Shown: positions 18,666 through 53,384, numbered from the stretch's first letter. The stretch: 64,000 nucleotides of DNA from Ruditapes philippinarum (GCF_026571515.1 NW_026853591.1:62001-126000); one strand, 5' to 3'. The notes: generated from the letters alone by a model not told the origin. Program-made: numbers and translations.

Positions 18666-19681
18666 TAACGAGCCATAAAATAACTAGGGATTCGTTCTTT
18701 ATTTTTCAACTGAACCTAGAAGGTAACTAAAAATACAAGAAATATGAGTTGTGTACAATATTTTTATTATGACACATTGTTCTGCAACATGATCTGGGAA
18801 AGAAATTAATATTTCTACATTTTTTATATTTTATTTTAAGCATAAACCACTAAAACAAAGACAGACCAAACTTGTTTTAATGGAATTAAATAGGTAGTCT
18901 AATTAGTTTAGGGTAACCCTAAACTATGGTAAGGACAGTCGATTTATTTAAGTCGCTGAACTTATTATCTCTATATGGCATGGCATCAGTTGATTAAGTT
19001 TTTAAATAGAGTGTCCAATAACAAATGTTCACTAGCAGATTCAGTGGCAGTACTTAATCTCATGTTATTAATTAAACTGATCAAATAAATCAAACTCCGC
19101 TCTTAAAATTCTTCATTGAGTTTAATTTGTCGTCATCAATTATTCATTATATTATGTGAATGTAAAATAACTGAGCTTAGAAGATTCAATTCACGTTCAG
19201 GTCATTCTTTACGGCTACAAATGTGTCATATGAACAATATTTATGGATCATATAAATCTTCCATGGTCTGCCATGTTTTTACCAGATGCGGAAATAATAC
19301 TTTAGCAAATTGATATTGACTGTTTTCATCAACAATATAACATAAAGAGGAATAATGCTACAGATTTAATAAAATTATGACTTTTTACAATAATTTAGGA
19401 TAACAAAATGTTTTGGGAACTAAGAGCGCTCTTTAATAAAGAACATGTGTATGGCACCAAAATAAAAAAAATGTTGGCATTACAGCGAACCTAAAGAATT
19501 CGAAAAAAATACAAAAATTATCAAAATGCATATTAATATTACACTTGATTTTTCGCTCCCTGTGGCATTGACTAATGTTGCACAATTCATTATGCGATGA
19601 ATCTTTATAAATAAAAGACAGAAAAAAACAAACAACAGAACATCTGAATATTAAAACGTATGAAAATCATTCTTCTTTTAT

Positions 19682-21386
19682 CACGGTGCATATCCATATC
19701 GGTACCCTCTTTGCGAAATCTGCTGAAACGGTACCCTCTTTGTACATGCACAGGCCATTCTCTGCTCAAAACAAACCAGCGATGGATAACAAGCCAGTAA
19801 AAATTCATTGTAATAAGGAAAGGAAGGTATGACACGTGAACAAGATGTATCCACGGAACACTAGTTTAATGTTTTATCTCATGTGCTGATGTTGTCATGT
19901 GCCCGGTTTTTTTCATGTACTGCAACTTCACATAAGCTACAAAAATCCACATGTCTTACCTCGCCCATACTCGACATACTTTCTCGGGCTGAAAATGAAC
20001 GCTGTAGCTTGATTATATATCGGCATCATACATATCTAATATGTTTCATCTTACATATCATTTCGGACAAATGGCAAGTACATTGTCAAAAATAATGGTA
20101 AAATTCATAAAAACACCCTACTTTCAGTTTTGCAGCGGCACGGGCTACCTCTCTTAATTTGAATTTTTATATCACAGGTACCCTCTCATTTTTTAAAGGG
20201 ATACTCAGGCAAATAAATGACAAAATATCAAAATGATTTAATGTACTCAAATCATGCTAAAATGACATTTTCTAAAATCCCAGCATGAAATTCTGTATAA
20301 ATTCAATTTATTTATGGTTTGAAGCGTAAATATATCTAGATGTATTGAACGAAATTTAGTCGCCGACAGAATCACCGAAAAGCTGTAAAACAAGCCATGT
20401 GACTTGAACAAACTCTGGAATTTACAATAACAGATTTTGTGGATATTGAAAGATTGAAACAAGTCTAAGTCACTCATTTGATATGTTTCTTTAACGTTTC
20501 CATAGTTCATTGTGGGAACTTATGTGATATCTTAACGCTCTAACCTGACCCACGCGGGTCAAGTTAGGAAACCAGCATTTTATTCTTTATAAGGAGAAAA
20601 GTTTTGTTCCTATGACTGCCTAGTTTATTTATTTGAGGACATTGACAGAGTAATGAATGAAAAAAATCAAAACGAAGAAATGAAAATTTTGTCTGTGTCT
20701 CCCTTTAACACATAGGTATACTCAATGCACGACATATGCTTTTAATTGCGTTAATCGTTAAGTATGTAATATTTACATAAATAAAAAATTAATGTTACAT
20801 ACTAACGATTAAACGCCAATTAAAAAGCATATGTCGTCGCCTTGAGATAAAATATATGTGAAAAAAAAAATTGAGAGGGTACTGTGACATAAAAATTCAA
20901 ATGAAGAGAGGTAGCCTGTGCCGTTGCACAAACGAAAGTAGGGTGTTTTTCTATCGTTTTTTTTATTTTTTTTTGACACTATAACTGCCACTTTGTCCGA
21001 AGATGGTAATGTATATGAAACATATTCAAATATGTATGATGCATATACTAATCAAGCCACAAGGTTTATTTCAGGCCGAAAAAATAATGTCGAGGTTGAT
21101 TGGGCGAAGAAGGCATGTCGATTTTTTTTGTAGGCTTATTGTGAATTTGTAGTACATGAAAAACGGGAACATGACAAATCAGCACAAATAGATAGAAACA
21201 TTCAGTGTTCCGTGGTATACATACTTTTCTACGTGTTAACTTACTTTCTTATTATATTCGAATTTTTTACTGTATTGCTTATCAATCGCTGGTTTGTTTT
21301 TAGCAGAGAGTGGCCTGTGCATGTGCAAAGTGGGTACCGTTTCAGCAGATTTCGCAAAGAGGGTACCGATATGAATATGCACCGTG
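19682..21386. mobile_element. Non-autonomous foldback DNA transposon (~1.2 kb without the nested insert); termini CACGGTG...CACCGTG, 5-bp TSD TTTAT; Transib/RAG-like candidate
   Basis: The left arm (19682-20196 plus 20709-20775) is an imperfect inverted copy of 20790-21386. TTTAT lies at both 19677-19681 and 21387-21391. The subterminal motif CGGTACCCTCTTTG is repeated. Confidence 0.85.
20197..20704. mobile_element. Nested non-autonomous DNA transposon with TTAA TSD (Kolobok-like)
   Basis: TTAA|AGGGATACTCAGGCAAA ... TTTGTCTGTGTCTCCCT|TTAA. Removing it restores the symmetry of the host palindrome. Confidence 0.85.
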
Positions 21387-21724
21387 TTTATACTACCTGT
21401 TTGTATATCTTGCATCTAGAAGCTCGTTAATTCGTCTTTGTAGTGGAAAAAAGTGAGGATGGAGGGGGTTTCATTGTTCATACTGGTAATTAAACAATTT
21501 GTTAACTTCAGAAGTTGGTTTCAAGTAATAACAATGGTTATTGATAACAATAATCAGTTACACATTGTACACAATTATATGGCATAAATGATTAGACATT
21601 TCCGAAATAATATTACGATAAAACTGGAGTAAGTTCAGTACCTTTAACATATGACATTCTCATAACAGACAACATGCTGAACTTCAATCTTAGATAGAAT
21701 GAATCGGGTAATTCCGTCGGAATT

Positions 21725-29799: not shown

Positions 29800-30290
29800 A
29801 ATTGACTATACCTAATTTAGTAATTGATATTGTTATAGTTGTAATTTTCATCATTGCAAACGCATTGTTACTTAAGTGAAATTGGAAAACTACATATAAC
29901 CAAGATGTAAGACATGCAGAGATAACTATCGATCAATTGTTATCAATTATAACTATATAACTATCAATTACGTTCAACCGATCAATCACCATTTTTGACA
30001 AGCATCGGTAATGCATTGCTTTATTGAATCTAGAAAACAATGTATCTTGTATATACGTAAAACTTAATAAGGCTTTGATTATATCTTTTTTTTTTATTCA
30101 TTTTGAACATAAATATTTCGTCAGATTTGTACAACATATTTTGTTATGATACATTATCAACATTTTACTGAATCGTGTGGCACTTTGCGGAAATGAGAAT
30201 TTAAAATATGTGTGCGGTGTTAAATATAAGATTATTGAATAAGTACAGCATGTACAGGTTACAAAATTATATTTTGAAGCCACTATAATA
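29800..30290 (-). pseudogene. Decayed class A GPCR TM1-TM4 relic, copy A
   Basis: The minus strand reads 'AMHYRCLSKMVIDRLNVI' (TM3 with DRL); paralog at 45620-46110. Confidence 0.55.
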
Positions 30291-30349
30291 TTAGTTTATT
30301 ATCAAATAAAACTTGGTAATGAAACTTCAAATATGTTATTTCATTTCTT

Positions 30350-30660
30350 TTGCACATATACATGTATAAAGTGGTTTTTTTTTCGTTAACAAACCCGTAT
30401 TATTTTTGACCGTATCTGAACATGTTACCATGTCAGAAAAGCGGCACTAGTATGCGTGTAATTCCAATGAAATAAAGAACAACTTATCTTGCAACGATAC
30501 AGTTTTCTCATAATATTCATTTATATTTAACATAATTATATTTATTGCTGTAAATCAATTTTGAGCTCATGTTGCGGACAAAACAAAAGGCGAACTTTTT
30601 CATATAAACATCTTAAACATCTGGCTGAATTGATGGTAAGACAACAGTCTGTAAGTTTCG
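30350..30660 (+). pseudogene. Decayed class A GPCR TM2-TM4 relic, copy A
   Basis: TM2-like 'FVNKPVLFLTVSEH'; paralog of 46190-46510. Confidence 0.4.
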
Positions 30661-31841
30661 TAACAAATGTTTTAATATGAACACCATGTTATTAATTCTC
30701 TTCTCTGTACAAGTGATGAATTTGTATTCAACGTTTAAAACATTAAATAACACTAAAGACGTTTAAAGTCATTTTAAAGACCTTGATTTCACGTTCAAGA
30801 CCAAATTATTTGTTAAAGTATTTATAAAAAGGAAATGTTGCTTATTGGAAAGTAAGACACTGAGAATAATTCTAGTAACAGTAGACTATGTAATGTATAG
30901 AGTTCAGTCCGAAACAACGTTAAATAATTTGTCTGACATTTTGCAAGTATGTCACCCATTTGATAAATTGTTGTTGATGTGAACTTATTCTGAAGTAATT
31001 AAAATGAAAATTACGACAATGACAGATGCCAGTTTGCAATGAATTTGTTTCAAATATTTTTTGTTGTATTGATGATATTTCTTCGTATTTAGTATCATGA
31101 AACAAAAAGTTTGTAAAAAAAACATTGATAAAAATTTTTTAAAAAAAAACGAAAAAATTTTTAAAAAATTAGTTTCCCTGCGGGGATTTTTTGTCTCCCC
31201 TGCATGTTTGATCCTTTTCAAAACACTTTTATCTTTTGATTTTTAAAAATTCTAAAAAAAGAGTCTTAAAAATCCATTGTTACTTTTTTTACTGAAAAAT
31301 TTTTTTCTAAACCTATTCCCTTTTTTAAATGTTACTGAAAAATGCGTTGAAACAAAAAATTTTTCCCATTAGACCCTAGAACTTTTGTATCATTAATTTA
31401 ATATCGTTAAAGGCAAAATAAAGAGTTGTTTTGATTGCTACTGACTATGTTATTGTTTTTTTTAAGTGTATTTTTTTTTTTTTTAAAAAAAGTTAAGGGG
31501 ACGTAAACCAAACGAAATGCAAGGGAGTTTGGGTATAGATTTTTATTTGATAATTTGCGACGTTGAGTGTTACTTTGCACGAAATAAATACGGGTTTTAC
31601 ATTGATTCGCAGTAAAAATTTTTTTACATCCTAGTTTAAATTTAAACTTAAAAAATTAAAAGAATTGTTACGTAGTTGTTGGGAAAGTACAGGAAGTAAA
31701 ATTTTCCCGTTCATTATAGCGGAGAATTTTGTTTAAACATGGGAAACCCAAAAACCCGTTTTGTCTGTTATTTAGGTCTATAATAATGTTATGTGATATT
31801 TGGTATTTACGGGTTTCTTACGGGTAACTTTTACATTTAAA

Positions 31842-32900
31842 TGATGACACCGACATAAAATTGGGCGGGGAAGTACCCAGAAATTTGGAAAGAATGGGGG
31901 ATAGTAAAAATTCAAAACGCCCCTGGAGACGCAAAAGAACGAATGCCAAGGAGATTGGCTCATTATTCGAAAAGATAAGTGAAAATACTAATAATTCACA
32001 GTTAAGCAAAATTAGTAATATCATAGCATGTGACATTCCAAAATTCAAAAGAAAAAAGCAATGAAGAGCAATATAAGCACAACGTTAAAGTAAACATGAA
32101 ATTAAATGAAGCCGAGCAGTTAGTTAGCACAGACAGACCCGTTCAGTGTAAAGACAAAATCGTTGAAGGTATTTATTTCTAATTTCGCTGTACAACAGTT
32201 AATTGATATCTTATTTTCGTTTATTAGATATTTTTGATTATTTTAATGATATCAGAAACACCTGAAACATAAACATTTATGATAACGGTGATAATCATAT
32301 ATAAAAGTACTGCCGTTATATAAACATGTCGATCACTATGTTAAAAATACACACTTTTCGTTAGTTCGCTTATGTAACGGATACTAGTATTCATTGTTTT
32401 TATATGAACAATATATGTTATCCTTACAATTTTAAAGCACATATATTTTTATTGAACTGAGTGATATTTTTATTGTTGCTATTCAGCATACTTGTACATA
32501 TATAATTTGATATATCTCACATCTCGTGCTGTTATGCGTTTCAGCTAAAGAGATAATTGGACACAGACAGAAGCTAATTCAGCTTGCGGATTCGAGCGAA
32601 TAAGGCTGGCGTGTGGTGCACGAGTATGAGACAAATCCACTCGCAGACGATTCTGAGGACGAACGACGCATGTATAAAGCCGAGGCACGGGCTAACCGGA
32701 AGTTAAAAGCCGAGCGAGCAAAGAAGTCAAAGTCGGGACGTCCGGCGCCCCTACAGACGACCGGTGGCTACTACGTCCACATCAACAACGGATCATGTAA
32801 CGCCTAAAACAGGTCGACCAGGTCTTTGTTTCCAGTGTGGAAAAATTGGTCACTGGAAAGAAAGAGTGCCCGGGAATAAGCACACCATATTAAGATGAGT
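31842..32900 (+). CDS. DIRS gag-like ORF1 (two exons, intron 32169-32544; disrupted in this assembly)
   Basis: Reads 'DIPKFKRK/NEEQYKHNVKVNMKLNEAEQ...KDKIVE A|KEIIGHRQKLIQLADSSE*GWRVVHEYETNPLADDSEDERRMYKAEARANRK', with zinc knuckle 'CFQCGKIGHWK.EC' at ~32827. Confidence 0.8.
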
Positions 32901-35300
32901 ATTAATGAAAATTTAATGTTTAATGATATCACTGTACTGAATGCACCAAAGTCTGTTGACACTGCACGTGATGCTGGAGCACGTGCAGTTCAATATACTC
33001 AAGGTAATTGTAAACCAAGCAACACTTCTAGTCTAGTGTTGTCACCAGTAGGAAGGTTAAGACAAAGCTTTGAGAAGTGGCGGTCAGTCGCAGGTGAGTC
33101 TTATATTGTAGAAGTCATAAAGTCAGGATTATAGACTTCCATTTAAGAGTTTGCCCTTCTAAATCTGTTTTGAAAAACAACAAATCTGCGAGAGACAATC
33201 CGATATTTGTTATGTCGGAATTGAGAGTCTTTTAAAAGAAAGGCGTAATATCTGAGGTTCAAAAACACTCCTTTTGTTGTAAATCCATTGACAGTTGCAT
33301 ACAATCGGGTAGGGGCAACCCAGACTTGTGCTAGATTGTAGACATATTAATCCACATTTACATTTGTTCAAAGTCAAATTTGAAGACATTTTTGTAGCAC
33401 AAAGTGTTTTTCAGCCTGGATCCTATGTGTTTACTTTTGATCTTAAGAGTGCGTATCACCATATTAATATTTTTCCTGATCATAGAACCTATTTAGGGTT
33501 TTCTTGGGTGAAAAAATGATATTGTTACTTTATTATGTGTATAATTCTCTGCCGTTTGGTATAGCCACTGCGGGTCATATTTTTACTAAAGTACTTAGGG
33601 TAGTAGTCTCGTATATTAGAGAGCAGGGTCATAGGTCATCATGTTTTAGATGACGGAATTGCGCGGAATCATGGTTTTAGCAGAAGCTTTTAAATCTAGT
33701 CATTTCATTAAAATCACACTGCAGGATTTCGGTTTCCTTTTGGCGGAAGAAAAAATGTTCATGGCAACCTTTACAAAAGTGTAACCTGGTTAGGTCACGT
33801 TTTAGATTTTAATAGCAATCGTATTTTTATTACGGAAGTAGGATTTCTAGGCTCTTTAAATGCAATAGAATGCTGCGCTAAAGCTATTTATCTTGACAAA
33901 TTAAGTTTATTACCAGTTAGGAAAATTTGGCATCCATTGTTTGTCAGATTATTTTCCTTACATTCTGTATTAGAGCATAAAGTTAGGAATTAAAACCAAG
34001 AAATGTACAATTGCATTCTGGTTAGGGCTAGTTGGATTCTCTGTAATTGTAACAGACAGGGCAATAGAAGAATTATTATTTTGAAAATAAACGTACGTCG
34101 TACACAGTTAAAAAACTAACGGTAAGTTCAATAAAAAGGGCACCCCCTTGCGAGTATACACTGTTCTGCGATGCAAGTGCATGAGGGTTTGGGGGGTAGT
34201 ACTGAAAAATAAATCAGTTTTGTGTATCACCCGAGAGGCAGGGGGACATAGGAATATCTACATTCCACCGGACTGTTGGGTTTCCAACGGGTACAGGAGC
34301 CGATTTTATTGATATGCTGACCCGAGGAAGTCGAGCTCCTCGTTTCGACGAGGTTTTCATTGGTAAGTAACGAAAAGCTCCCGGATGTGGGCAGTAATTT
34401 GCGGAGCGAATCTCCGGAAGTAGATAAGCTTGCACAGATTTTTCATATGTTAGATTATAGATATATGTCCGAATCCTAGTGATTTTTGTTGGCGAGGGCA
34501 ATTTAATCATGGTTACAAATTTCAAAACGTTAGCCAACGTCATCGGTACATGGGATCCCGAGGAAGTTCGGGCGTAGTTCTACTTGGGAGAGAGATTTGA
34601 GCAGTAAACGGTCATTAAGAGTCATGTTATATATATTGAAAACACTTCTGTAAAAATTTATTCTGACAACCAAAAAAACGTTAAATCTATTTTATTGAAC
34701 GGAAGTAGAAACTTTTCTCTGCATTGTATTTCAACTTGCATAAATGATTTTTGTGTGAAAAAATAGTATCAAGATTTTGTCCTGAAATATGGATTCCACG
34801 TTCCGAAAATTATTTGGCTGATTATTTACAGTCGGTGCAAAGATAGCGACGATTGGTTCTATATTCAGATACTCAATTTAAACGTTTTAGACATTTTAGG
34901 GGGGTACTCATACAGTAGATAGATTTTTTTTTCTTACAATAATCATTGTGAAAGATTTAATTCCAAATGGTGGGTCCTAGAACTGAGGCTGTAAACCTTT
35001 TGATCAGTTTTGGGCCGTGAAAATAACTGGATCGTTCCACCGCCTAGGTTAGTGCCGGATTGCTTAAATAAAATAGAAAACGAAAAAGCAAACATGTACT
35101 TTAGTAGTACCAATGTGGCAGTCTGCAGCATATTGGCAAAGCTTTTTGAAAGCAAGTTAAAAACTTAAAAGCTTCATAGTAGATGTAAAATTTTGCCGAG
35201 GCAGGAACCATATGTATAGGCAGGGGGAAATAATGGTATTTTCGATAGGGATCCGTTGTCTTTCAACATGATAACTTTTAGGATTTGTTTTTCGTACTTA
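32895..35300 (+). CDS. DIRS reverse transcriptase / RNase H / N6-adenine methyltransferase-like ORF2 (many indels)
   Basis: RT: 'GRLRQSFEKW', 'VNPLTVA', 'LDCRHINPHL', 'FDLKSAYHHI', 'NSLPFGIATAGHIFTKVLR', 'M(F)LDDG'. RNase H: 'FCDAS..GFGG', 'SSTWRE', 'YSDNQ', 'WIPRSENYLAD'. MT: 'THTVDRF', 'RFNSKWW', 'ENNWIVPPPRLV', 'LVVPMWQSAAYW'. Confidence 0.9.
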
Positions 35301-35358
35301 AATAAGCAAAGCATGCTTTTTTGTACATATAATATATGAATATTTTCTTGTTTAATAG

Positions 35359-36408
35359 GTGTTGACTTAAAATCAGCATGGGAGAGCAAGTTGGCAGAGG
35401 CAGGAAAATCAATAATCAAGGAAATCTGGCGGAACACATGGCTACATATATTTTACATTCAAGGGGCAGATAATACAGTTAAAAAATACAATAGGTTATT
35501 TCAAGCTCTTTAGGCCATTTTGTGAATCTAAAAGTTTATCAGCAATTACCAGCTAAATTTTACATGACAGTGGCACTTTATTTCTAACTTCTCTTCTAGA
35601 CGAAAATAAAATCAAACAGCGTCGTGAGTTCATCTGTGGTACCGCCATTAAGTGGATGCATTCTATTCATGACTTGCCGGATCCTACGGAAAATTCTGTA
35701 GTTAGGAATTTATTTAGAAGCCTCTAAAAGTACTTAGATCAAAACCGGGTTGTAAAGAAAGACATTGTAGATTCCCAATATGTTAAAAATCTTTGTGTGC
35801 CTTGTTTGAAAAACAATATGACACTTGGTGGAATTTTACGAGACTTGTCTATGATTCTAATTGGTTATGCAGGTTTTTTAAGATTTAATGAATTAAGTTT
35901 CTCTTTTGCTGTAAATGATGTCATTTTTAAATGAAAAATCAATATTGTTTATAAAAAATAAGGGTTAGCAAAACTGATATTTACAAGAAAGGGAAACGAA
36001 GTTTCTAATAGCTAAGGGTGATACTATTGCCTGTCCATACAAGATGTTACAAAAGTAATACATGTCTAAAGGCAGATTTGACTGTTGAATCAGAAAAATA
36101 TCTATTCAGACCATTGTTGAAAACAAGAGGTAAAATACTCATTGGTTAAAGTAAACAACAGCTGAGCTATACTAGAGCCAAAGAGTGTATTGTTGCTAAA
36201 ACTTAGATTAGTAGTTCGGCCTTGAAAACTCGGTACACATTCTCTTTTCGAGCCAGGCGGTGCTTCCGCTGCATAGTTAATTTGCAAGGTATCTGAGCGT
36301 TGCATTAAGAGACATGGTCGCTGGAAAGTCAAGACCAAGCAAAAGAATGGTTATGTTCAAGATTCACTTGAAAAAAAGGCTTTTTATTTCAAAGCTTTAG
36401 GGTTATGA
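35359..36408 (+). CDS. DIRS tyrosine recombinase ORF3 (indels present; begins at a splice acceptor)
   Basis: Motifs 'HSR.ADNTVKKY', 'RDLSMILIGYAGFLRFNELS', 'SKTDI', 'IAKGDTIACP', 'LSYTRAKE', 'LGTHS.RAGGAS', 'KRHGRWKS', 'GYVQDSLEK'; stop TGA at 36406-36408. Confidence 0.9.
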
Positions 36409-36567: not shown

Positions 36568-36802
36568 TATAAATGCGCCTCGTCAAACGCAAAAACTGTT
36601 TGTTTGTTTTGGTGGTTTTGTTTAAAGGTGGTGTTTGAGACATATAGTTCTCCGCGTTACATCGTATAGCGGAGAAATATTGTCTCAACATAGCGTGACC
36701 AAAACCCGGTTTTGTCTGTTATTATAGGTCTATAAATAACTAGTTATGTGATATATTGGTCACTTCTACGAGGTTTTCTTACGGGTAACATCTTACATTC
36801 TA
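36568..36802 (+). repeat. Internal B1-A2 junction of the split direct repeats
   Basis: 36568-36642 is repeated at 37376-37443; 36647-36802 is repeated at 31702-31840. Confidence 0.9.
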
Positions 36803-37446
36803 ATTCAATTATATATTTTTTGTGAAAGTTTATATTTTCTGAGTTTTTTCTTTTGAAAAAATAGAGAGAGCACGTCTGGACAGAATTCCGTTAAGTCCAA
36901 TATTTCGAGGAATAGTCTGAGAAAATGTGCCGATACCGGTATAATTTCGTGCATGGCTACGGATACACGTTTCCTCTCGCCAAAAAAAAAAAAAACGGGC
37001 GACGGGGTTTTTCGTGGGCGGCCAGTATTCCGATGACAAATACACAGTCAATGAATATTTGTTAATTCTGTTAGAATGTTTTACAAGCTACAATGATAAT
37101 ATAATAACTATTGATTGTGACGTGTATTCCAAAAAGTAAATAGCTGATACTCATGTAATCTTTATGACATTACTTTTTTACTTTTGTATGGGACATGTTT
37201 TCCCACAGTTAATTCAAGTTTATATATACAATGTATAGTTCACAAAGTAGCAGATAACATAATATTTTAATTACGAATGAATTTAGTTTTATTGGCAATA
37301 TCAATGCATTTTGTTAAACAAAAATAAAATTAAAAGATTTTGTATTACTGCATAAACTGCTTCCATGTTACCTAAATAAATGCGCCTCGTCAACGCAAAA
37401 CTGTTTGTTTCTTTTGGTTTTGGTTTAAGGTGGTGTTTGAGACTCT

Positions 37447-38000
37447 TTGTTATCAACAGAATCGGTATAACTTGTTAAGACTGTTGCAAGAAAGACCTGT
37501 CATTTCTCATACTAGTATAACCACTTGCCCCTCACCGCTGTTGGTTCGAATCCTGACTGGGGCTTTGAATTAGTTCATGTAAGGAAGCTATATAGCTAAC
37601 GTACGGAATATCGGTGGTTCTACTCAGGTACCTGTTCGTGCCTGAAATAATGCACGTAAGGGCACCTGAGGTCTTCCTCCACCAGTAAAGCTGGAACGTC
37701 GCCATATGACCTATACTGTGTCGGTCTTACGTAAAACCCAATAAAACAAATCAGGTAGTATAGTAAGTTTAATTATCGAACTCTTTCACACCTCGACCGA
37801 CGTGGGATTTCTCTCTGACATTGGATCAGTACAGTCAAGGTTTAGTGTGATGATATTCGAAAATTTGTTTTGTAAATGAAACGTCTTGTCTCTTTGAAGT
37901 ATCTTATGGCATGCAAGGACTTGTCATTGTTTTTATTATGCGTGATTTTCATGGGGTATTGGATAACTCTCCAATTCATTTCATAATTTGGCACTGGAAG
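37447..38000 (+). pseudogene. Decayed class A GPCR TM1-TM3 relic interrupted by the DIRS element and a SINE; uninterrupted paralog at 47600-47930
   Basis: Reads 'TSTDVGFLSDIGSVQSRFSVMIFENLFCK' (TM2 .TD..FL and W.FG.LFCK). The paralog gives TM1 'VGKV/GRSVIVI'. Confidence 0.55.
37520..37755 (+). mobile_element. tRNA-SINE family A, 5'-truncated, TSD TAGTATA
   Basis: B box GGTTCGAATCC at ~37543. TAGTATA at 37513-37519 and 37756-37762. Absent from the paralog at ~47690. Confidence 0.92.
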
Positions 38001-38649
38001 CTGTGTAGGTAACATAGTTTTGTAATGCTTACAGCGGCCTTTAGCTTTTCTTAAGGTTAAATGATGTTATCCTTTAGAAAAATAGTTTCTTAGGAAAATG
38101 ACAATTGCCGTCGATTAAAATACAATTATAAATAAACAATAAAAAATACATCGATACCTGTAATCTACCAGTCCGCTCTCTAAGTAAAGCGGACGATTCG
38201 TTTCCCGGTCTTTTTTTAGAATCGAGATTCACTGGTGAGCTATAAATATTATTTTTTTTTGTTTTTGGTTGAAACATTAACAATGAACACTGAAGGCTTT
38301 AAGTCTTCAACGATGTTTCACAGCCTGTAAAAGACAAGCATATCAACATGTTGAACTGATACCGTAAATATATCTACACTACCAAGCGCAACTATTTGCA
38401 AAATGCAATAGGTGTTAGATTGGAACTTCATCCATCAGACATGATATTCCAGTTCTATGTAAAACCGCCATTTATATTCCAAAAACGTGTATAACCTTTG
38501 AATATAACATTGTCTGATAGACGCTAGGTATTTACATATAATTTTGACTATACGGAGCTGTTAAGATCACATTATTTCTAATCATGTAGCTTTATCGTTC
38601 TCAAATGTGGCATATTGACGTTATTTATGATAGTAGACTTCATTGAATA

Positions 38650-39520
38650 TCGATACGAAATTGTTCATGTCTGGCATTATATTTCAATGGATAAGGAAAT
38701 GTCCTAAATAATTTTGTTATAGATTCTTTTTGAATACAGGAAGAAATTATTAAGATCTATTATTGAATATGGAATGAAAAACATTTTGGAAATCTCTCCA
38801 AGCGTATAGCAGGCAATGCTTAATAATCTAAAACTCAATAAAACTGCTATGATCTCTAATATAAGTCTGTTATTGTTAATGTTTATGACATATTGTGAAA
38901 AACGTGCATAAGACACCACGAAAACAGTAGAATCTTATCAATACAGATATGAAGATTACTAAACATGTACATGACGCTTCTTTTCAATCAATGTCATATA
39001 ATTTAAAACTAATGCAAAACTAGTAAAGGTTTACGTAATATATACGAATATTATTATTTGGTCACTTAACGGCAACCTTCTGGACAAATTGTGCTTGCTA
39101 ATGCATTTTCACTGTTTTTGCATACAAATGTATTTTCAGCGTTATGTACAGCATCGCAAATTCATAACTATTTCAATATTTTCAATTTACTTATTATCCC
39201 TACAGCATGCAAAAACAACTACGTTTCCACATGCCATTCTTTAAGGCAATGCGCGTTTTCAACATGGTTTTTCATTGTTTGGAATATTCATTATATTATA
39301 TGTTTATAGATAACGAATTGAACACCTATATCCACATTTCCTTTCGTTTGTTACATTTGTAAATGGCTTGTTAATAAATTTTCGACATTTGAACCAGTAA
39401 AATATATAAATATAATACATTTTTAAGATATTCGGATGGTTGCTGTCCCATAATTGTCCAGAAGACCAAAACATCAAATAGTTATTGGGATTGAATTGTT
39501 CAGACATCGGATAGCTTTTA
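38650..39520 (-). pseudogene. Decayed class A GPCR (FMRFamide-receptor-like) TM4-TM7 relic, copy A
   Basis: TM5 'IIIFVYIT*TFTSFALVLNYMTLIEKKRH'. TM6/TM7 'RLILEIIAVLLSFRL...YSIIDLNNFFLY' (ORF 38704-38919). Confidence 0.6.
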
Positions 39521-40559
39521 AATAAGTTTAATCTTTAAGGTTACACAACCATTATATAATTTTGATATATGTATAACTTAAAATATTTAAATAATCCTCA
39601 CGCTTTATTCTTTAAGGCTAGTAATACACAAACATTAAATAATCTTTAAAGACTATATAATAAACATGAAATAGTGCGTTTGAAAGGTTTAAAACTACAA
39701 TATACTTTTTATGTCTATTTATAGAATACGTTTATCGTAACTATATTTCTTAAATAATAATAAATGCTGTGTTTTATAGAATGCATGATCTTTCGACGAT
39801 TCTGTTTATGTATAATATGCAAAATCATTAATGTTAGTGATTACCTTATCATATGATTATATAAAAATACAGTATGTATGTTTAAAATTTTCATCTTACT
39901 TCTGTCTAATTTCCTATTCGCAGTATTCGCATTTTAAAATTCAAAAAATGATCATGTTAATTGAACAGTGAACATAGTTCTTTATGTTAGTAACTTAAGT
40001 GACATTTTGCTCATATTTTCATCGTCAAGTTTAACTTAATTTACTATACATTTTGAAAGATTGGCTGTTATGATTGTGACTGAAACACATTGTTTTGGAT
40101 GGCAATAAATGTGCCTAAAATATAAAAATATTGCCCTACTCTTTTTATAAATTGAATGTTAAAGGTAAATTTTGATGAAAATTTACAAAAATGTCGTTTG
40201 GGCACGTGCTTTATTAATTGTTCGTGCGAAGTACATTATAAAATTGAAACTTAAGGAATTATGAGGAAATGTAAACTTATTTCGACTTTCACCTATATCC
40301 CTTGGATGGGCATAATGTCACATAATCAAGCTAAATTTTATGGGTCACATCTTATCTTGATATTATTATTCGCATGTACATTATCTTTTATATCAGCAAT
40401 TAGTTTCTTAAAACTTAAAGTAATATTTTTTGTCTAAAACTTACAACATTCCATTTGATGTTCATTTACATGACACGGAACATTCATTGATATATGTACG
40501 AGGGAAATGTGTTAAATAGCATGCTTTAAAACCTTATGCCTAATGCTGAAAACTGAACA

Positions 40560-40750
40560 CAGTCTGATGGCAGTGATTTGTTTTCAGATATGCATTGATT
40601 TCTAATCAATGAATCAATGATATTTACCGGAAACAATCTATTCCATTTCACATGGATTGCTTTCTTTTGTTAAGCAATAACCGTAAATAATGAAACATGT
40701 TCCGTTATAAAGAACATTTTATGTCGATATAAAAGTATATTATGCAAGTC
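40560..40750 (-). pseudogene. Decayed class A GPCR TM3 relic (paralogs 50270-50460 and ~55060-55220)
   Basis: Reads 'HVSLFTVIA' (cf. SLFT..IA.ERY.AI); 'atttaccggaa' is shared by all three copies. Confidence 0.4.
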
Positions 40751-41699
40751 GTTTACTGAAACAGCTCATGAAAAAAGTTAAAGAGCATTTTTCAGTATTG
40801 CTATTTTATTTTAACATTTAATATTTCATAAGGATCAGCATTTAAGAATTAGGCATGACATGACCTACGGTTACATATTTGCTAAAGGGCATGGGAAACA
40901 TGTAAACAATATACCAGTGCTACATGGTGTTGTGTTCTTAAATTGATAGAACTTAATTTAGCCTTGAATCTTTTGGGAACAATTAGGTTTTGTGTGGCAA
41001 AAGAGTATTGTTCATTAGGTAACATTATCTTTAAAAAAAGAACGATTGTTAGGTAGTAAATGGATTCAGATTCTGAGATACTGAAATAAATACAACGCTC
41101 TTATAACATTGAATGTTTAGTTACTGTCCTAATTATACATCAATAATTATGAAAACGTAAAAGATATGTTCCCTCGAAGATTATGTTATTTCCTATCTAG
41201 TAGCATTCGTTTCAGATATAATAAAAACAAATGCTCTTTAGTTTTGAAATTTGCAACACTGACCTATCAATTTCATTAAAGTATTTGCGTTTTAATTTGT
41301 TCATGAATTTTGTGCTGTTGCTAAGTATCTTGCGCGATTCTTAATAAGTACTAATGGAAGTCTTAGAAGAAAATTAGTTGCTTTATATTCTCATTTGTTC
41401 AGCGACACTGTAATGATTATATGGCGAGTTTACTTGTGTAGAAAAAAAAACTTACGTTCCCCTCTTTGCATTAATTCAACTTCATCACATTATTAAATAT
41501 GGTTTAAAGTCAACGTCCATAACATGCTTGACTGTTAGTACCTTTTTCTTTTCTTTTTCATACTGTTGTGAATTCAGCAAATACATGTTGATATCAAAAT
41601 AAATAGCCCCCCCCCCCCAGAATCCCCAAAAACCATGTTAATAATAAGTTTGATGTAACAATGCTAAGACGATGAAAAATACAGATGATGTGAAAATTG

Positions 41700-42990
41700 G
41701 AAATGAATGTCTCACAACTTACTGGTCTCAACTCCCATGTCGTACTGCTTCCAAATATGAAAGATAAATTAAAGAAATAACATTAACAAAATTTATCCTC
41801 CTTAACATTAAACATTTGTATTTCCATTTTCAGTATTTGATGTTACATCGTGTCAATAATATAACGTTTATGCATTCCGTGTGATCTCTTCAGAGTGCGC
41901 TTGTGTTCATTAATATTTGTTTAGTTAAGCAATAAAGGAGTCGTTTAAAATTCATTATCATGGTAATAATTCCAAGATGCAGCATTGTTAAGCCATATCC
42001 ACATTTTAAATGTATATGTTAAATGATTCGTAGTATAAAACTATGACATTTGTTCTAGTGTAATGTTCCATGACACTTGATTATGCCTTTAATTTTTATG
42101 TAATGCGATGTTTAACCTGGTATAAAAGTTCAATGACATTTTTTTTATTTTATCTTAAATGATATGTTGATAAAGGTACAACGTTTTTAGTTGCTGATTT
42201 GCTCATTCTCTGTAACGTGGTAGTTTATTGCTTCCTTTGTATATTACAATCACAATTTATTTTAAAAATTAACCAGACCTGTGCAATGGATGCAAGGAAA
42301 TGTTAAACATTAGCAATAATAATTTGTTGTTAAGGATAACAAATTTTTGCAGTTAATAATAAAATTATAATGGATGAACCTAGTTCATGTAGATGCTGAG
42401 ATATTTTAACAGTATGTTTTTACTGTTATTGAGTTATACTCACTTGTGTACTTACTTATTGATTAATTTATTTATGTATTCATAATACAAGCAATATATC
42501 GTAAACGTTTTAGTTTGTAATTGTATAATACTTCCTATGAATATTGTACATGTACCTATTCAAAAGATTCTCAACGGAGAGCCAGAACTTAGCGAGACGT
42601 GAAATTTGGAAATAAATATTTCATTGCACTTTAGTCAAATAAATGTTGATATAAATCCACACGTGACAAGGATAAAGTCTGTCTGATAACATTAAACGCT
42701 AATTGCATTCACTGTCCAATAGAGCACGGAAAACCTGGTTCACAAGGATACTCTGTGACAATACAGGGTTACGAGATGGTTAAAGTTGTAATTACAAGCT
42801 AGAAGCAGGACGCTATGTGGCTATTTTAATATTGTTAATGTAATATTACTGTTAAAGTTGAATGGCATCGTTGTTCCTTAGATTCAAAGAACATGACTTT
42901 GGGCCTAACTAGAATAGTGTTGCTTAGGGTAGGCACACATTTGTCTCAATATTTAACCATGTGTAATTTCTATACAAAAATAAAACTTTT
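41700..42990 (-). pseudogene. Decayed class A GPCR (FMRFamide-receptor-like) TM1-TM6 relic, copy A
   Basis: Paralog of 51600-53030; TM5 'VDMA*QCCIL/ITMIM/ILNDSFIA*LNKY'. Confidence 0.55.
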
Positions 42991-43869
42991 CACATATTAA
43001 ATGCATGACATTAGATTATCTAGGATAATTCTATGTACGACATTAGTATTTACCACACCTCATGCATATCTTGCATTGTTTCAATGGTAAGGAAATATGA
43101 TTTGTAGAATAAAATTATCGATAAAGATCACATCGATCTAATTGTTAGATTATAACAAATACATGTTGATTTATAAGAGTTTATCAAAAATGGTGCTTTC
43201 AGAAAGTATACTTACCGGGAATGGCACGAATCTGTTACACTGAAGGTTGCACAGGACAATATCTGCAGCATATTTTCAATCTTAAGTCTTGTTTCTATTT
43301 TCATGCTTTGTTTAAAAAGTATGTTTGACGTATTTTGATCATGTTCAGTGCGCCAAAGCGAACAAATGTTTTCATATTGTATGTATATACACAAGTTAAA
43401 CTGTGTTAAAGACACATAGTTTTCTGTTCCATCGACGCAATATACCGTTATCATAAAATTATAGAAACACACGTTCAAAGATATGGTTTACGTCAATTAC
43501 AATGATGTTGGTCATTTGAAAATGTTCTTTGATAATTATGTCATAAATAGGTATTCTTTTTATTAAGAAATACATTCATTTACTATTAGATTCTTTAAGT
43601 TACTTGTGTAGTGAATAATGTTTTTACATTTCAACCCATATTATCAAATTTAACTTTGAACATAATTGTACAATTATAATGTTATAGCAATTATATTATA
43701 AAAAATATATACCCTAGTGATGTATTTATTATCAGTCCCAATTGTAAAAGGCTAGCAAAGATGAAAATCCCAATGTTTTGGGATAGATAAAATATCTTAA
43801 AAACATTTATGTTTATTTCATTATAAAGTATAAAGTACTCGATTTATATAGAATATATTTTAGTTCTTT

Positions 43870-44689: not shown

Positions 44690-45300
44690 TAATTATAATA
44701 TACAATTATTGACTAGTGAGCCATTGAATATGATGTGATATTCACCGGCAGATGACATATTGACCGAGGCGATAGCCGAGGTCAATATGTCTTTCTGCCG
44801 GTGAATATCACATCATATTCAATAGCTCACTAGTCAATAATTGTTTTATTATATAAAAAGGCTCAGAATTTAAAAAAAAATGACGAAAAAGTACAACCTT
44901 ATATACATGTACAAAGTTTGCCTAGTTCAAGCGCGGGAAAAAAGGCGCACGTGCTAGGCGTGCAACGACTACGCGAACGCTGCGCATACAAAAGTAATTC
45001 AAGTTTATTCTCATCGACACGGTTAAGCCTTTAAGTATAACAGTAAAGTAATGATATTTCAATCGAGAAATATGCCATAAAGAACAAAACGCAACAATTA
45101 TTTTTTAATTAGCACACGTAATTAACAGTCTTCGGTGTATGGTCATTGAATATAAGTCTCAATCTATTTTTAGACTTGGAAAATCCAATTCAGCCAGTTA
45201 ATATGATACTCCCCCCAGTGAATATGATTTTATAAAAAGTTCTGTTGACTACAGTTTTGACCAATGAGATTGCAGCTATTTTTAGATCATATAATAATAA
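44690..45300. mobile_element. Non-autonomous element with a ~160 bp near-perfect hairpin, flanked by AAT tracts; class unassigned
   Basis: Inverted arms at 44694-44765 and 44780-44853. The whole 44607-45375 segment is absent from the paralog at ~29520. Confidence 0.75.
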
Positions 45301-45619: not shown

Positions 45620-46110
45620 ATTGACTATACTTAATCTAGTAATTGATATTGTTGTAGTTGTAATTTTCATCAATGAAACGCATTGTTACTTAAGTGAAAT
45701 TGGAAAACTACATGAAACTAAGATGTAAAACATGCAGAGATAGCCATCGATAAGTTATCAATTATAATTATATAACTATCTATTACGTTCAACCGATCAA
45801 TCATCATTTTTGACAAGCATCGGTAATGCATTGTTTTATTGAATATGTATCTTGTATATACGCAAAACTTTATAAGACTTTGATTATATCTTCTTTCACA
45901 TGATCGTTTTGAGCATAAATATTTTGTCAGATTTGTAAAACCACATAACATATTTTGTTATGATACATTATCAACATGATGCTGAAACTTGTGGCAATTT
46001 ATGGATATGAGAATTTAAAATGTGTGTGCGGTGTTAAATATGAAGATAATTGAATAAGTACAGGTTACAAAATTAAATATTTGGATAACAAAATATATTG
46101 TTCGAGCCAC
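45620..46110 (-). pseudogene. Decayed class A GPCR TM1-TM4 relic, copy B
   Basis: ORF 45718-45951 reads 'SLIKFCVYTRYIFNKTMHYRCLSKMMIDRLNVI...LSMAISAC' (cf. CKF..Y..Y....W.L..M.IDR...I). Confidence 0.6.
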
Positions 46111-46189
46111 TATGATATAAGTTTATTAAACAAATTCTTGGTCATGAAACTACAAATAGGGTAAATTAAATAAATGTTATTCCATTCTG

Positions 46190-46510
46190 TTGCACATCCA
46201 TGTAAACAAAGTGCAGTCTTTCGTTAACAAGCCAATATTATTCTTGGCCGCATCTGAACATTTTACGGTGTCAGAAAAGTGTCACGAATATGCGTGTGAT
46301 TCAAAGCAAATAAAGAACAAATTACCTTGCAACGATACCGTTTGTCATAATATTCATTTATTCAACATACGAGTACAGTAATTGCTTTAAATCATTTTTT
46401 AGCTGATGTTGCTGACAAAAAACAAAAGGCGATTTTTTTTTAATAATTTTAATATAATATTTCAAACACATTTGGCTGAATTGATGGTAAGACGACAGTA
46501 TGTAAGTTTT
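46190..46510 (+). pseudogene. Decayed class A GPCR TM2-TM4 relic, copy B
   Basis: TM2 'SFVNKPILFLAASEHF' (cf. N..I..LA.SD), 'VCHNIHLF', TM3 end 'VIALNHFLA', TM4 'HIWL'. Confidence 0.5.
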
Positions 46511-47599
46511 ATAACAAATGGTTTAATATGAACACCATGTTATTAATTATCTCCTCTATTTGTATTCAACGTTAAACACATTAAATAACACTAAAGAAGT
46601 TAGAAGTAATTTTTAAAGACCTTGATTTCACTAAACACATTATTTGTTTAAGTATTTATAAAAAGGAAATGTTGCTTATTGGAAAGTTAGACATTGAGAA
46701 TAATTGTTGTAACAGTAGATTATTTAATGTATAGAGTTCAGTCGGATACAACGTCAAATTATTTGATAAATTGTTGTTGATGTGAACTTATTCTGAAGAA
46801 ATTTATATTCAAATTACAATAACAGTTCAAAGTTTGTAATAAATTTGTTTTAAATACTTTGTGTTGTATTATTGATATTTCTTCGTATATAATATTATGA
46901 AACATAACATTTTGCATTAAAAATCATTGATCAGAATTAATAAAAACCAGAATAATACTTTAAAAATACATTATAATTTGCCTGCCGAGGATTTTTATTC
47001 CCGCCCGCATGTTTGATCTTTTTTTAAATTACATTTTATCGTTTTATTCGTTTAGAATTCAAATAAAAGAGTCATTAGAAATCCATTGTATGACATTTGT
47101 TTATCCCGAGTAATATCATTTAAAAGCTCCATTCTCGTTTAAACTGTTACTGTTAAATGCGTTAAAACAATTAGGTTTGCCATTAGAACCCGGGAACTAT
47201 ACTATATCAGTTAATTGGCCAAATATGAAATAGTGTGTTTGATATTGCGCTGACTCAGCTATTGCATAAGTGTATAAGTATTTCTTTTATAAAAGTTAAT
47301 GAGTACGTAAACCCGAACGAAATGTCAACGGAGCTTTGGGTATAGTATTTTATCTGATAATTTGCTTTATATTAACGTTGAAAGCGATACTTTGTCATAA
47401 ACATGAATACTGGTTTACATTGATTATGCATCAGTAAAATATTGTAACACTTGTTTTATAACTGATTGTGTTGGTATGTTTGAAATTATCAATTATTCAA
47501 ATCAACAAAATTAATTTACTATTCACTAGGTTCATACGTATGGTAATACCTTCTCAGCTTCAGTTTAAACTTAAAACATAAAAAAATAAGTGTTACGTA

Positions 47600-47930
47600 T
47601 GCTGTTGGAAAAGTGGCAGGTCAGTAATTGTTATCAACAAAATTAGTACATTTCTTTAGACTGTTCTAATATAGACCTGTCATTTCAGAGAGTATAGTAA
47701 GTTTAATTATCTGAATCTTTCACAGCTCGACCGACGTGTCATTTCTGTCGGACATTGGATCAATACTGTCAGAGTATATTTTGATGGTATTAGAAAATTA
47801 CCTTGTCTCTTTGAAGTTTTAAATGTTATGCCATGACTTGTCTTTTTTTTTAATCATGCATGATTTTCACGGGGTCATTTGATAACTCCCCGAAGCATGT
47901 CATTATTTGGCACTGCAGGCTGTGTAGTTA
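47600..47930 (+). pseudogene. Decayed class A GPCR TM1-TM3 relic, copy B (empty DIRS site)
   Basis: Reads 'VGKV/GRSVIVINKI' and 'STDVSFLSDIGS'. Confidence 0.5.
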
Positions 47931-48619
47931 ATTTTGTTTTCTAATGCTTAAAGCGGGCTTTAGCTTTGCTTTAGGTTAAATAATATCATTTTTTGGATTA
48001 ATTGTTTCTTATAATTGTCCAGTCAAAAGAGTTAATGTGGGCAATGACAATTGCGTCGATAAAATACAAATGAACATAAACAATTAAAAAAACAGCATCA
48101 ATACCTGTAACATGTCCGCTCTCTATATGTAAAGAAGTAAAGCAGACGATTCGTTCTTTATCTTCTATTTTTAGAAACGAGAGTTTTTGGCGAGCTTTAA
48201 ATACCTCTTGGGTAACTGTTTCTTTTCTTTTTTAATTATTGTTTTTTGTTGTTTTTAAGTCTTCAACGATGTTTCACATCCTGTAAAAGACAAGCACACA
48301 TGCATGTTGAATTGATAACGTAAATGTATCTACACTATCAAATTCAACTATTTGCTGGATGCAATAGGAGTTAGATTGGAACTGCATACATCAGAAATGG
48401 TAATCCAGTTTTATGTTAATGTAAACCCGTCGTCAATATTCCAAAACGTGTATAACCTTTAAATATAACATTTTCTGATAGACTGTTAGTATTTACATAT
48501 GACTATTCGGAGCTATTAAGGTCACATTATTTCTAATCATGTAGCTTTATCATTCTCAAATGTGGCATATTGACGTTATTTATGATAGTTAACTTCATCG
48601 AATATCGATACGGAATTGT

Positions 48620-49120
48620 TCCTGTTTGGTATCCTATTTCAATGGATAAGGAAATGTCTTAAATGATTTTGTTATAGATTGTTTTTGAATACAGAAGAAA
48701 TTATTAAAAACTATTACATTATATCGAATGAAAATCATTTTGAAAATCTCTCTAAGAGTATTGCAAGCAACGCTAAATAATCTAAAACTCAATAAAACTG
48801 CTATGATCTCTAATATTACTCGGTTATTGTTAATGTTTATGACATATGGTAAAAAACGTGCATAAAACACCACGGAACAATAGAATCGTATCCATACAGA
48901 TATAAAGATTACTAGAAATGTAAATTACGCTTTTTTGTAAGTTTCAAAGAAACTAATGCGAAACCAGTTGTGCTTGCGTACGCATTTTCACGTTAAAACG
49001 AACTATACTGCTTTTCGCATAAAAATGTTTTTTCAGCGTTTTGTACAGCATAGCAAATTAATGACTTTTTTAAATTTACTTATTATTCCTTCAGCATGAG
49101 TCAACAACTACTATTCCACA
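48620..49120 (-). pseudogene. Decayed class A GPCR TM6-TM7 relic, copy B
   Basis: ORF 48634-48873 reads 'RVILEIIAVLLSFRL...YNVIVFNNFF'. Confidence 0.55.
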
Positions 49121-50269
49121 TGTAGCACTGACCAGAGTAGGTACTGTACCTAACCTAGCTAACATTGCCAAAGTCAGCTCAATATTAACTGCAACAATTT
49201 GATTGGTTGAGAATAATATTGTATATACCATGCAATAAGTATGAAGTATAGTAACTCACAACTTAGATTACCGTAAATACCCATCCTATTTCACATAGCC
49301 ATTCAATAATCTATAAAGACTCCTTAATATGCATAAACAGTACTTTTTTAAAAGATTAGAAACCATTATATATTTTTACGTCTATTTATAGAATAAGTTT
49401 TTAATTCTTATATTATTGCGATGTTTTATAGATTGTACAATATCATGATAAGTCTGTTTATATAAATATGTGGTAATCATTACTGTTAATAATTACAGTG
49501 TCATTTGATTATCTAGAGTAAAAGTGTGCATGATATTAATTTTCAAATGGCATAATTCTATTTTCCTATTTGCAGTATTCGCATTTAAGAATTTCAAAAT
49601 GATCATGTTGAAGTAACATATTATTCTGCAAGTGCTGATTGTCAGTGAACAGGTAAAAATCAAAATTACTTGACATTTTGCCATATTTATATCAATTTAT
49701 ATTTTACTTAATTTTTAAAAATAATCAATAATCAACGTGTCCAAAGGCATGTCTATAAATATCTTTCAGAATGTATCTGTGATTTTTTATTCTTTAAAAG
49801 AGTGGGATAGCCTTTTTATAATTTAGGTGGTTTGTATGATTATCATAAGGATTATTCTTATCTTTAATTGTTCAATTACCATAACAATAGTTAATCGTAT
49901 AAAATTAATAACTATTTCAGCTAAACTTGACAGAGAAACAAATTAGCATAATGTCACTGTAAGTTAAAAGTGAACATTATTTCTATTCTAAGTAGATATT
50001 GTTCTTTATGCTGGTAATTTAAGTTGAATTATACACATATTGTCATCGTCAATGTACACTGTATTGACTATACATTTTAAATAATGGTGACTGGCCAATA
50101 TTATAAATTGTTTTGGTAGCTTGGATGTGTAGGGACTGCGTCCTATGAACGTTGCCTTTGTCTTGTTGATTTTTATCCTCGTCTTGTATAGAAAATATAT
50201 TTGCTTAAAATATCAAAAACACTGCCCCACTTTTTTTTTAGAAACTTGCAAATTGAATGCTTCACAACT

Positions 50270-50460
50270 TTATGATGAATGCTGAAATCTGTCTAATGGC
50301 AGTGATTTATTTTCAGTTATACATTGATTTCTTATCAATGAATCGATTGTATTTACCGGAAGTAACAATTTCACGTGGATTGCGTTCTTTTGTAAAGCAA
50401 TAACCGTAAATAATGAAACATGTTCCGTATGTCGATATAAAGGTATATTATGCAATTCGT
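50270..50460 (-). pseudogene. Decayed class A GPCR TM3 relic, copy B
   Basis: ORF 50270-50455 reads 'HVSLFTVIALQKNAIHVKLLLP'. Confidence 0.4.
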
Positions 50461-51599
50461 CTGCTGAAAAACTGCATGCGTGCTAAAGGGGAACATGGTT
50501 CGTGATGTCAAATCTTTTTATGAAGCCACAAATACACCCGTTTATTGATTGAACAGTCACATAAAAAAAACTAGAACACGTTTAAGAGGCAGGAATTGTC
50601 CAAATCTTTACCCGGCCGATTGGAAAAAAAATGCAAATAAGTCATGAATTACTTTCCGTTTAATTTGGCTTAAGGTAACTTAGATATCTCGATTGTAAAC
50701 TTTTATGCGATTGTTTGGTTCAATATTTCCCTTGCACGCATTCTTCAAAAATAAAAATAAAAAAAGACTTGACTTATGCTAATAAGCATGGAAAATATGT
50801 AACCAATTTACCAATGCTTTTAAATTAGGTTACATGATAGGAATTTACATTTTACCTGAAATATTTTATGACCAAATTAATTAAGTACAAAGGTAAGCAT
50901 TGTTCAATAAATTACAGTGTCTGATGAAATGTGATTGTTAAATGATTTAGATACTGACAGTAATATACCTCGCTTAAAATCCTTGTCTATTGATTTGCTA
51001 CCCTAATTACACAATCAATAATTATGAAAGGTTAAGGACATGTTCCGTTAAAGGTTTTTGGTTGATTAGCAGTATTTTTTAGATATTGTATAGACTGATG
51101 TTCTATAATTCATCAATTTGCATCTCTAAATTATTTTTAATTTCATTACAGAAATCCTATTTAATTCGGTAACGATTTGTGTTGTGTTGTCAATATTTTG
51201 CACGATGCTCGTTCAAACAAAATGAAAGGCATGGACGAAAATGAAATGCTTTATTAAGTAGAGCCACCAAAGCTAGCTGGAAAGCTCAATCTCATTAATA
51301 ATTGGTTTAAAGTCAACGTTAATAACATATGTTTTTCTTTTTCTTTTTCGTACATGTATATACACTGCAATTACTTTAAATATCAAAATGAATATTTCTT
51401 CCCCGAAAATGAGGTTTTATAAGAATACGTTAATGATAAATTTTACCGTAACAATGCGTATATGATGAGAAATACAGATAATGTTGTCACAGATGTTAAA
51501 TATAATAAATATCAAATAAATAAGCTTTTGTTAAGACAATGTTATTATACGATGTTGAATGTCGATGCCTAATTTAACACCTGTGACAAATGTGATTGG

Positions 51600-52375: not shown

Positions 52376-52408
<33 letters not shown>

Positions 52409-53030: not shown

Positions 53031-53384
53031 GATGTATGTCATTAGATTTATTAGGATAATTCTATGTACGTCATTAATATTTACCTCACCTCATGTTTTT
53101 TTTTCAATGGTTATGTGTTTCGTAGAATAAAATTATTCGATAAAGATTACATTGACCTAATTGTTAAAGTGTAACAATTACATGTTAAGTGTAAGCTTTT
53201 TTTCAAAACTGAAGCTTGCAGAAAGTATACTTACCTGGAATGACAGGAATTTGTTACACTGAAGGTTGCATAGGACCATATCTTCAGATTATTTTCATTC
53301 TTAAGCTAAACATTATTTGCATGCTAAGTTTTAACATAATTTATTCTTGTTCAATTGTGTAAGAAACTATAAGCTAATACTAAC

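Follow-up and report, generated by a model that had tools for sequence, protein, structure and literature searches.

Overall organization of the element

The window analyzed here is a stretch of 64,000 nucleotides (nt) from Ruditapes philippinarum (GCF_026571515.1 NW_026853591.1:62001-126000); positions are counted from its first letter, and the features of the element all lie on the plus strand. Judged from its domains and repeats, the segment 31715-37443 appears to be a PAT-like tyrosine-recombinase (YR) retrotransposon of the order DIRS with one gag-pol frame, and in assembled contigs its recombinase exon is joined to the end of gag through a donor that lacks GT. The repeats follow the order A1-ORFs-B1-A2-B2 (ORF, open reading frame); that is, they are split direct repeats. 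A1 (31715-31837) matches A2 (36643-36803) and both A repeats of sister copies, and it is degraded in the noisy window copy; A2, B1 (36569-36642), and B2 (37376-37443), with which the element ends, were placed by repeat comparison. Between the repeats, gag exon 1 (31841-32168) comprises the N-terminal ~110 codons, delimited by copy alignment and open in the copies L031 and L032. It is followed by a 376-nt GT-AG intron in phase 1 (32169-32544; donor D1), exactly missing from the DNA copies L032 and L035, and by gag exon 2 (32545-32894), which holds a CCHC zinc knuckle (Pfam zf-CCHC on L031). The pol region (32895-35301) is continuous with gag, the two forming a single frame in cleaner copies (848 amino acids in L032, 1001 in L045), and encodes reverse transcriptase (RT), RNase H, and a Dam-like methyltransferase (MT). 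In the sister copies L031 and L045, Pfam matched RVT_1 and RT_RNaseH, the latter below its cutoff, and Dam behind RNase H (E 2.8e-8 in L045, 5.7e-4 in L031); no further Pfam family, integrase and protease included, was found in them at E 0.001. The tyrosine recombinase exon (35359-36408) matches Pfam Phage_integrase and is broken by indels in the assembly. Cre is the top fold match of the predicted L031 recombinase structure (E 7e-13); the model has a helix at residues 4 to 14 (pLDDT about 81-84), and its contacts were unreadable and are not used as support.

The MT and the split repeats point to the PAT group as defined in PMC4157794 and PMC3266345, a placement that rests on features, the RT tree holding no named reference elements (here and below, published work is described from the available portions of the cited articles). 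An Ngaro identity was ruled out by the MT domain, which Ngaro elements lack by definition, and a DIRS1-like identity by the repeats, which are direct and not inverted terminal repeats with an internal complementary region.

Six further copies of the family (F1) cover the region in question in the 1.4-Gb genome. Relative to L031, its closest sister, the window copy has 108 insertions, 74 of them single-base, and 38 deletions; it is separated from the other copies by 134 to 185 indel events, whereas 19 to 97 separate those copies from one another. The window thus carries the noisiest, indel-ridden copy of F1.

A recombinase acceptor read in two phases

An original prediction, made from the window sequence alone, held that the recombinase is reached by splicing to an acceptor whose AG ends at 35358, either from a mini-exon within RNase H (ATG at 34314, TG/GTAAGT with GT at 34363; slashes mark splice borders) or from donors with GT at 32169 or 33004. 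All of these sites exist as described, in phase 1, and splicing to the acceptor is real. The acceptor comprises a pyrimidine-rich tract and AG (35341-35358). Its AG is kept in 7/7 F1 copies, six of them reading AG/GT, and occupies the same place in all 19 families with an intact YR start, whose recombinases are at most 69% identical.

The first bases of the exon (35359-35370) are doubly read. Phase 0 gives V-L-T-stop in the window (TAA at 35368-35370) and a stop at codon 2 or 4 in 19/19 families; phase 1 gives G-V-D-L-K, and this YR frame is free of stops across 27 codons in 19/19 families, the third frame having stops. Upstream of the acceptor the YR frame has stops within 27 codons in 15 of the 19 families, and 13 have no Met before codon 27 to 29. 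The open frame, the upstream stops, and the missing Met codons indicate that the start of YR is read from an upstream phase-1 exon. Residues G1 and G16 are invariant across 14 aligned YRs. The string GVDLKSAW, with which the prediction had opened the recombinase, is an indel reading, and in five of the six other F1 copies YR codon 8 (35378) is an in-frame Met, a family-specific feature. Ribosomal slip at the Gag stop was rejected, a slippery heptamer not being found there by inspection.

A conserved non-GT donor joined to the recombinase exon

Eight sequencing runs were mapped on L031, all as assembled contigs; six were small (transcriptome-sized, 93 to 138 million letters, from six studies) and two genome-sized. 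In 6/6 small runs (X1, X2, X3, X5, X15, and X8), position 2561 of L031 is joined to position 4980 (window 32894 to 35359), removing an intron bounded by AT and AG. The joint is absent from 2/2 genome-sized runs, whose contigs span both ends unbroken. Contig depth of the joint over that of unspliced pol, a rough measure, was 39/97, 13/18, 48/72, 5/11, 7/6, and 4/11 in the six small runs. Junctions ending at 35359, which the prediction had named as the means to identify the donor, therefore occur, and they lead to a site that it had missed: the donor (D2) is the non-canonical AAG/ATGAGT (32892-32900), in phase 0, with the skipped part beginning ATGAGT at 32895. All of pol lies within this 2.4-kb intron (32895-35358). 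Its removal gives Gag three additional codons and a stop at 35368; because D2 is in phase 0, the join ends Gag instead of opening YR. The A at +1 is free of substitution in the unspliced contigs of X1, X2, X3, and X5, for which all substitutions were listed.

The donor is kept far beyond this family. Among 27 elements of the clade with fused gag-pol (16 from this genome and 11 metagenome contigs), 25 have [AC]AG/[AT]T[AG]AGT in phase 0, 39 to 75 nt past the knuckle; positions +1/+2 are AT in 19 of these, TT in 6, and GT in none, the +1 base switching between A and T across diverged elements without becoming G. An alignment scan of metagenomes gave 80 loci, a single-protein scan having found nothing. 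In relatives with split ORFs (L127-L130, L134, L135, L138, L139, L143, L144, L213, L222, L233, L239, and L250-L253), the same non-GT donor lies at or within about 40 nt of the gag stop; there the D2 motif stands just behind the stop in another phase, which argues that it is not a peptide motif. In several of these relatives the YR acceptor is in phase 0 and gag lacks a Gly-coded donor.

Apart from +1, the D2 intron has a U1-type donor consensus, a pyrimidine tract, a terminal AG, and base-exact removal, as a non-canonical intron of the major spliceosome would. The U12-type donor consensus is RTATCCTT, and a minor (U12-type) intron was rejected since D2 donors read [AT]T[AG]AGT. A one-base shift at D2 into the YR frame was also rejected: the joint seen is exact, and the cuts at -1 and at the normal site, +1, described for TT donors in PMC6280755 give no YR frame. 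A second non-GT donor-like site in phase 0, AAG/ATAAGT, lies in gag exon 1 (31972-31980); it occupies the same column in 3/15 aligned frames (including L045 and L050), is also found in the L323/L324 family, and was not seen in use.

A phase-1 donor in gag and probable DNA copies of spliced RNA

A phase-1 donor is what the YR frame needs, and D1, with GT at 32169, is the best in-frame partner among those the prediction had put forward and the kept candidate. The joint of the gag intron (32169-32544) is present in 4/6 small runs and 0/2 genome-sized ones. At the same codon and in phase 1, D1 is the intron start in one clade (11 rows; tree support, 100/98) and an exonic G/GT in 12 of the 13 intron-less relatives examined, the site not being located in L186. 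Of the Gly codons, 44% are GGT; at this codon the intron clade, once spliced, mostly encodes Ala. Since elements with the exonic donor surround the intron clade in the midpoint-rooted tree, from which L112 was left out for its short RT match, the phylogeny suggests that the D1 donor is older than the gag intron. Intron-less F1 copies pair with different intron-bearing ones: L032 and L033 share 6 substitutions and L035 and L034 share 8, as against 1 for L032 and L035.

The other proposed donor, at 33004-33009, is family-specific and was not seen joined, and no donor column is common across families. Within pol of F1 copies, 33094 and 34122 are near-perfect canonical phase-1 donors for which no joint was seen. 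The 34122 site, at the RT/RNase H border, recurs in 5/15 frames and was rejected as a candidate, as it follows from a Gly-Lys pair and its use was not seen.

Joins of gag to the YR acceptor also exist as DNA. Of 100 loci that include the 5' end of YR (the 60 best hits and 40 further ones), gag is joined directly to the acceptor in three, always at a predicted donor. In L302/L321, a sister family within the intron clade, and in L275 of the exonic clade, D1 is joined in frame to YR, L275 forming a whole A1-gag(N)-YR-B1-A2-B2 unit; in L267/L322, the AT donor CAG/ATAAGT is joined to the acceptor and reads Q-V-stop. All three joins agree base for base with the parent copies. In one family (L323, L324, and L321), three states exist as DNA: unspliced, lacking the gag intron, and with gag exon 1 joined to YR. 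L335 and L361, which have gag nearby, were rejected as spliced copies; both are ordinary deletions that keep the MT.

An RNase H insert with a conserved motif cluster

The RNase H insertion noticed in the prediction is real (34200-34545 in the window): the DAS-to-SSTWRE span is 387 to 392 nt in the five full copies L031-L035 versus 90 to 105 nt in 10/10 relatives (L117-L126). By copy and family comparison, the insert is in frame with pol, is highly variable, gives spans of 252 to 704 nt versus 90 to 105, and is confined to the intron clade. It carries CCGGA[AT]GT 2 to 6 times in 7/7 families, with shuffle means below 0.05; the counts are not independent, given a single origin of the insert and possible duplication of motifs within it. 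In the window, motifs are intact at 34381 and 34414, and two more are indel-damaged. Outside this genome, the insert with CCGGA[AT]GT occurs together with the gag intron in the metagenome contigs L181 (5 motifs), L184 (3), and L187 (1); the other 57 loci listed have none, and all of them have the short loop.

All 23 P[ED]V motifs use CCG, compared with 25% of other prolines, and 2/24 motifs lie in another frame. This codon bias and the off-frame motifs indicate that the motif is held as nucleic acid; the CCGGAAGT cluster is kept at the DNA level. The prediction had noted that these repeats read PEV/PDV in the pol frame and are ETS-type sites as DNA, and the latter view is supported: the signal lies in the DNA, not in a PEV peptide. 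The CCGGA[AT]GT cluster consists of what we take to be ETS-type sites. Our best guess is a cis-regulatory role, that of an internal enhancer being the most likely, rather than use as an exon; the insert may instead act as a promoter or an RNA signal.

Proposed expression strategy and alternative explanations

Building on the observed joins, phases, and conservation, we consider it probable that three proteins are made from one transcript by means of two alternative donors and a single acceptor before the recombinase. The D2 join, after the gag knuckle, would remove pol and yield Gag alone; the D1 join, inside gag, would yield a Gag(N)-recombinase fusion, with gag exon 1 as its predicted N terminus; and RNA skipping neither long intron would provide Gag-Pol and the copying template. 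The major spliceosome would make these joins, and AT or TT at +1 would keep D2 weak, so that enough RNA retains pol, and would thereby set the ratio of Gag to Gag-Pol. The D1-YR fusion may be the normal route to YR in F1 too, at low abundance, and its Gag part could carry YR into the particle. Copies that lose the gag intron would lose the phase-1 donor with it, and the resulting selection for intron-keeping masters would explain why an RNA-copied element keeps an intron. The prediction's idea of alternative splicing that switches between gag-pol and the YR exon is in line with what was found. With a confidence only slightly on the favorable side, we extend this scheme to an old splicing code common to animal PAT-like elements, in which a non-GT donor sets the ratio, the acceptor is read in two phases, a gag donor needed for the recombinase forces one clade to retain its intron through each round of reverse transcription, and an ETS enhancer sits in the RNase H loop of that clade.

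Several observations weigh against the three-protein scheme. All runs consist of assembled contigs; none is on record as RNA, a status that was guessed or inferred from size. The Gag(N)-YR fusion was observed only in sister families: the D1-to-YR join is absent from F1 contigs of the eight runs, a weak negative since contigs drop rare forms, and no gag-YR join exists among 8 F1 genomic YR copies. Contigs of X2 and X3 cross the gag intron (L031:1839-2215) at high depth without its joint, the pol-skipping joint being present in them; removal of this intron could differ between tissues or libraries. Intron-less copies are not rare (2/7 in F1, counting L157, and 2/5 in the family F3), and four informative sites in F3 did not tell whether such copies spread. 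Two of the 27 fused gag-pol elements (L188 and L194) are without the non-GT donor; they resemble L183 and L181 and look decayed.

The strongest competitor, which we nevertheless regard as unlikely, is that gag and YR are bicistronic: YR would be translated by re-initiation after the Gag stop on the AT-spliced RNA, and D1 would serve the gag intron only in F1. It has in its favor, and counting against the fusion route, that the F1 Met lies 8 nt past the Gag stop, is the next ATG, and stands in the YR frame in good context. The AT join is also the sole YR join seen in F1, a Met occurs at codon 8 to 12 in 5/9 intron-clade families versus 0/10 of the exonic-donor group (one at codon 22), and in X3 and X5 the depths of pol and of the joint add up to about that of the YR contigs, a weak measure. 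However, only 9/19 families have the first ATG past the Gag stop in the YR frame, all 19 keep the 27 codons ahead of the conserved Met open and patterned, and the D1-YR join exists as DNA in a sister family of the intron clade. Re-initiation and fusion are compatible with each other, and re-initiation may contribute in F1.

Far less credible is a promoter in the RNase H insert that yields a short first exon spliced to the YR acceptor, the form in which the prediction had cast its mini-exon (34314-34368). The ETS-like cluster is real and kept at the DNA level, and the insert is limited to the clade whose D1 faces a competing acceptor nearby. In L031, the ATG and G/GTAAGA are 43 nt apart, which still gives phase 1, read in the pol frame, and five small runs carry this allele. 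Against this, the donor has GT in 2/7 F1 copies, with GTAAGT in the window only, G/GTAAGA in L031, and TTT/GCAAGA in five copies. Conservation across copies, which the prediction had asked of both sites, thus holds for the acceptor and fails for the mini-exon donor. There is also no second frame: 6/6 other copies read the ATG at 34314 as part of pol (D-M-L-P-E-V), and the second frame of the window, likely a sequencing error, is an indel artifact. In the eight runs, with the same caution that contigs drop rare forms, no joint leads from 34363, 34122, 33094, 33004, or 32169 to the YR acceptor, five small runs with the GTAAGA allele included, and no donor column in or after the insert is common to at least 3 of 15 aligned frames, several of which end early. 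The conserved non-GT donor and the doubly read acceptor are more interesting features than the mini-exon.

It is just as improbable that splicing had no part in the joins and that reverse transcription, in cells or during library preparation, switched templates or made deletions at short stretches of shared sequence. Speaking for this and against splicing, 2 to 5 nt are shared on both sides of every junction (4 to 5 nt per DNA join, 2 nt in F1), and internal deletions do occur (L335, L361, second deletions in L321 and L322, and four other joints in X17/X20). Such microhomology comes with the splice consensus, yet it keeps template switching as a minor rival. On the other side, an identical, base-exact joint recurs in six studies whereas ordinary deletions are scattered, 3/3 gag-to-YR DNA joins lie at the predicted donor and acceptor, and the donor and acceptor consensus is kept over 19 to 25 families. 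Weakest of all is the idea that the AT donor works only once A-to-I editing makes it GT-like: such editing was seen in three human AT-AG introns (PMC4176328), but 6/25 donors are TT, beyond repair by editing, and unspliced contigs of four runs have no A-to-G change at +1.

Comparison with known systems

The element shares with described PAT-like elements (PMC4157794 and PMC3266345) the A1-ORFs-B1-A2-B2 layout, a gag with a knuckle, RT, RNase H, a Dam-like MT, and a downstream YR in the same orientation. Those elements are described with separate or overlapping ORFs, whereas here gag-pol is one frame, gag has an intron, YR lies behind an acceptor, the donor is non-GT, and RNase H has an ETS-like insert. 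With Ngaro elements (PMC4157794 and PMC9210276) it shares the repeat layout, RT/RNase H, and YR, and it differs from them in having the MT. In the available portions of PMC3266345, PMC9210276, and PMC3783388, splicing and introns are not mentioned. More broadly, splicing-based expression in elements of the order DIRS was not found in the literature covered, which included the available text of PMC7192593, PMC4157794, PMC9210276, PMC3266345, PMC12477816, PMC8547959, PMC8226300, PMC6681497, PMC5890265, and PMC3783388; Poulter and Butler 2015, the Goodwin and Poulter papers, Repbase, and supplements lay outside this coverage.

Closer parallels in expression come from Drosophila copia, Arabidopsis EVD, and barley BARE1, which splice a Gag-only subgenomic RNA (PMC5580714). 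There, too, one gag-pol frame is present, splicing removes or cuts off pol, a stop follows soon past the junction, and Gag is made in excess. These are long terminal repeat elements with the integrase inside pol; here, the second phase of the acceptor opens a recombinase, and the donor lacks GT. In human genes, AT and TT are the most used donors after GC, as rare and weak sites (PMC6280755 and PMC4176328). Human AT-AG and TT-AG introns likewise match U1 fully apart from +1, and aAG/TTAAGT is the form of the FBXO9 and ETV1 sites; the human sites are often young, whereas the non-GT donor here is held in 25/27 diverged elements from more than one source. AT-AG and TT-AG joins escape standard read mappers (PMC4176328), which may explain why such joins have been overlooked.

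For the order DIRS, the splicing scheme would answer two questions to the base, namely, how the recombinase is expressed when, as is often the case, it lacks a start codon and how Gag comes to exceed Pol, and it offers a reason for intron retention in an element copied through RNA. Seemingly in heavy use, the diverged AT/TT donors, at least 25 in number, also form a natural series for the choice of 5' sites by the spliceosome.

Flanking sequence

The element is flanked by degenerate segmental repeats at spacings of about 8, 10, and 16 kb (29900-30930 versus 45750-46770, 37750-43290 versus 47680-53310, and 4400-25200), in which no ORF of at least 95 amino acids looks coding. Inverted-repeat pairs at 19100-21390 (nested arms of 108 and 86 nt) and 44702-44844 (a 51-nt hairpin, 98%) suggest small DNA transposons.

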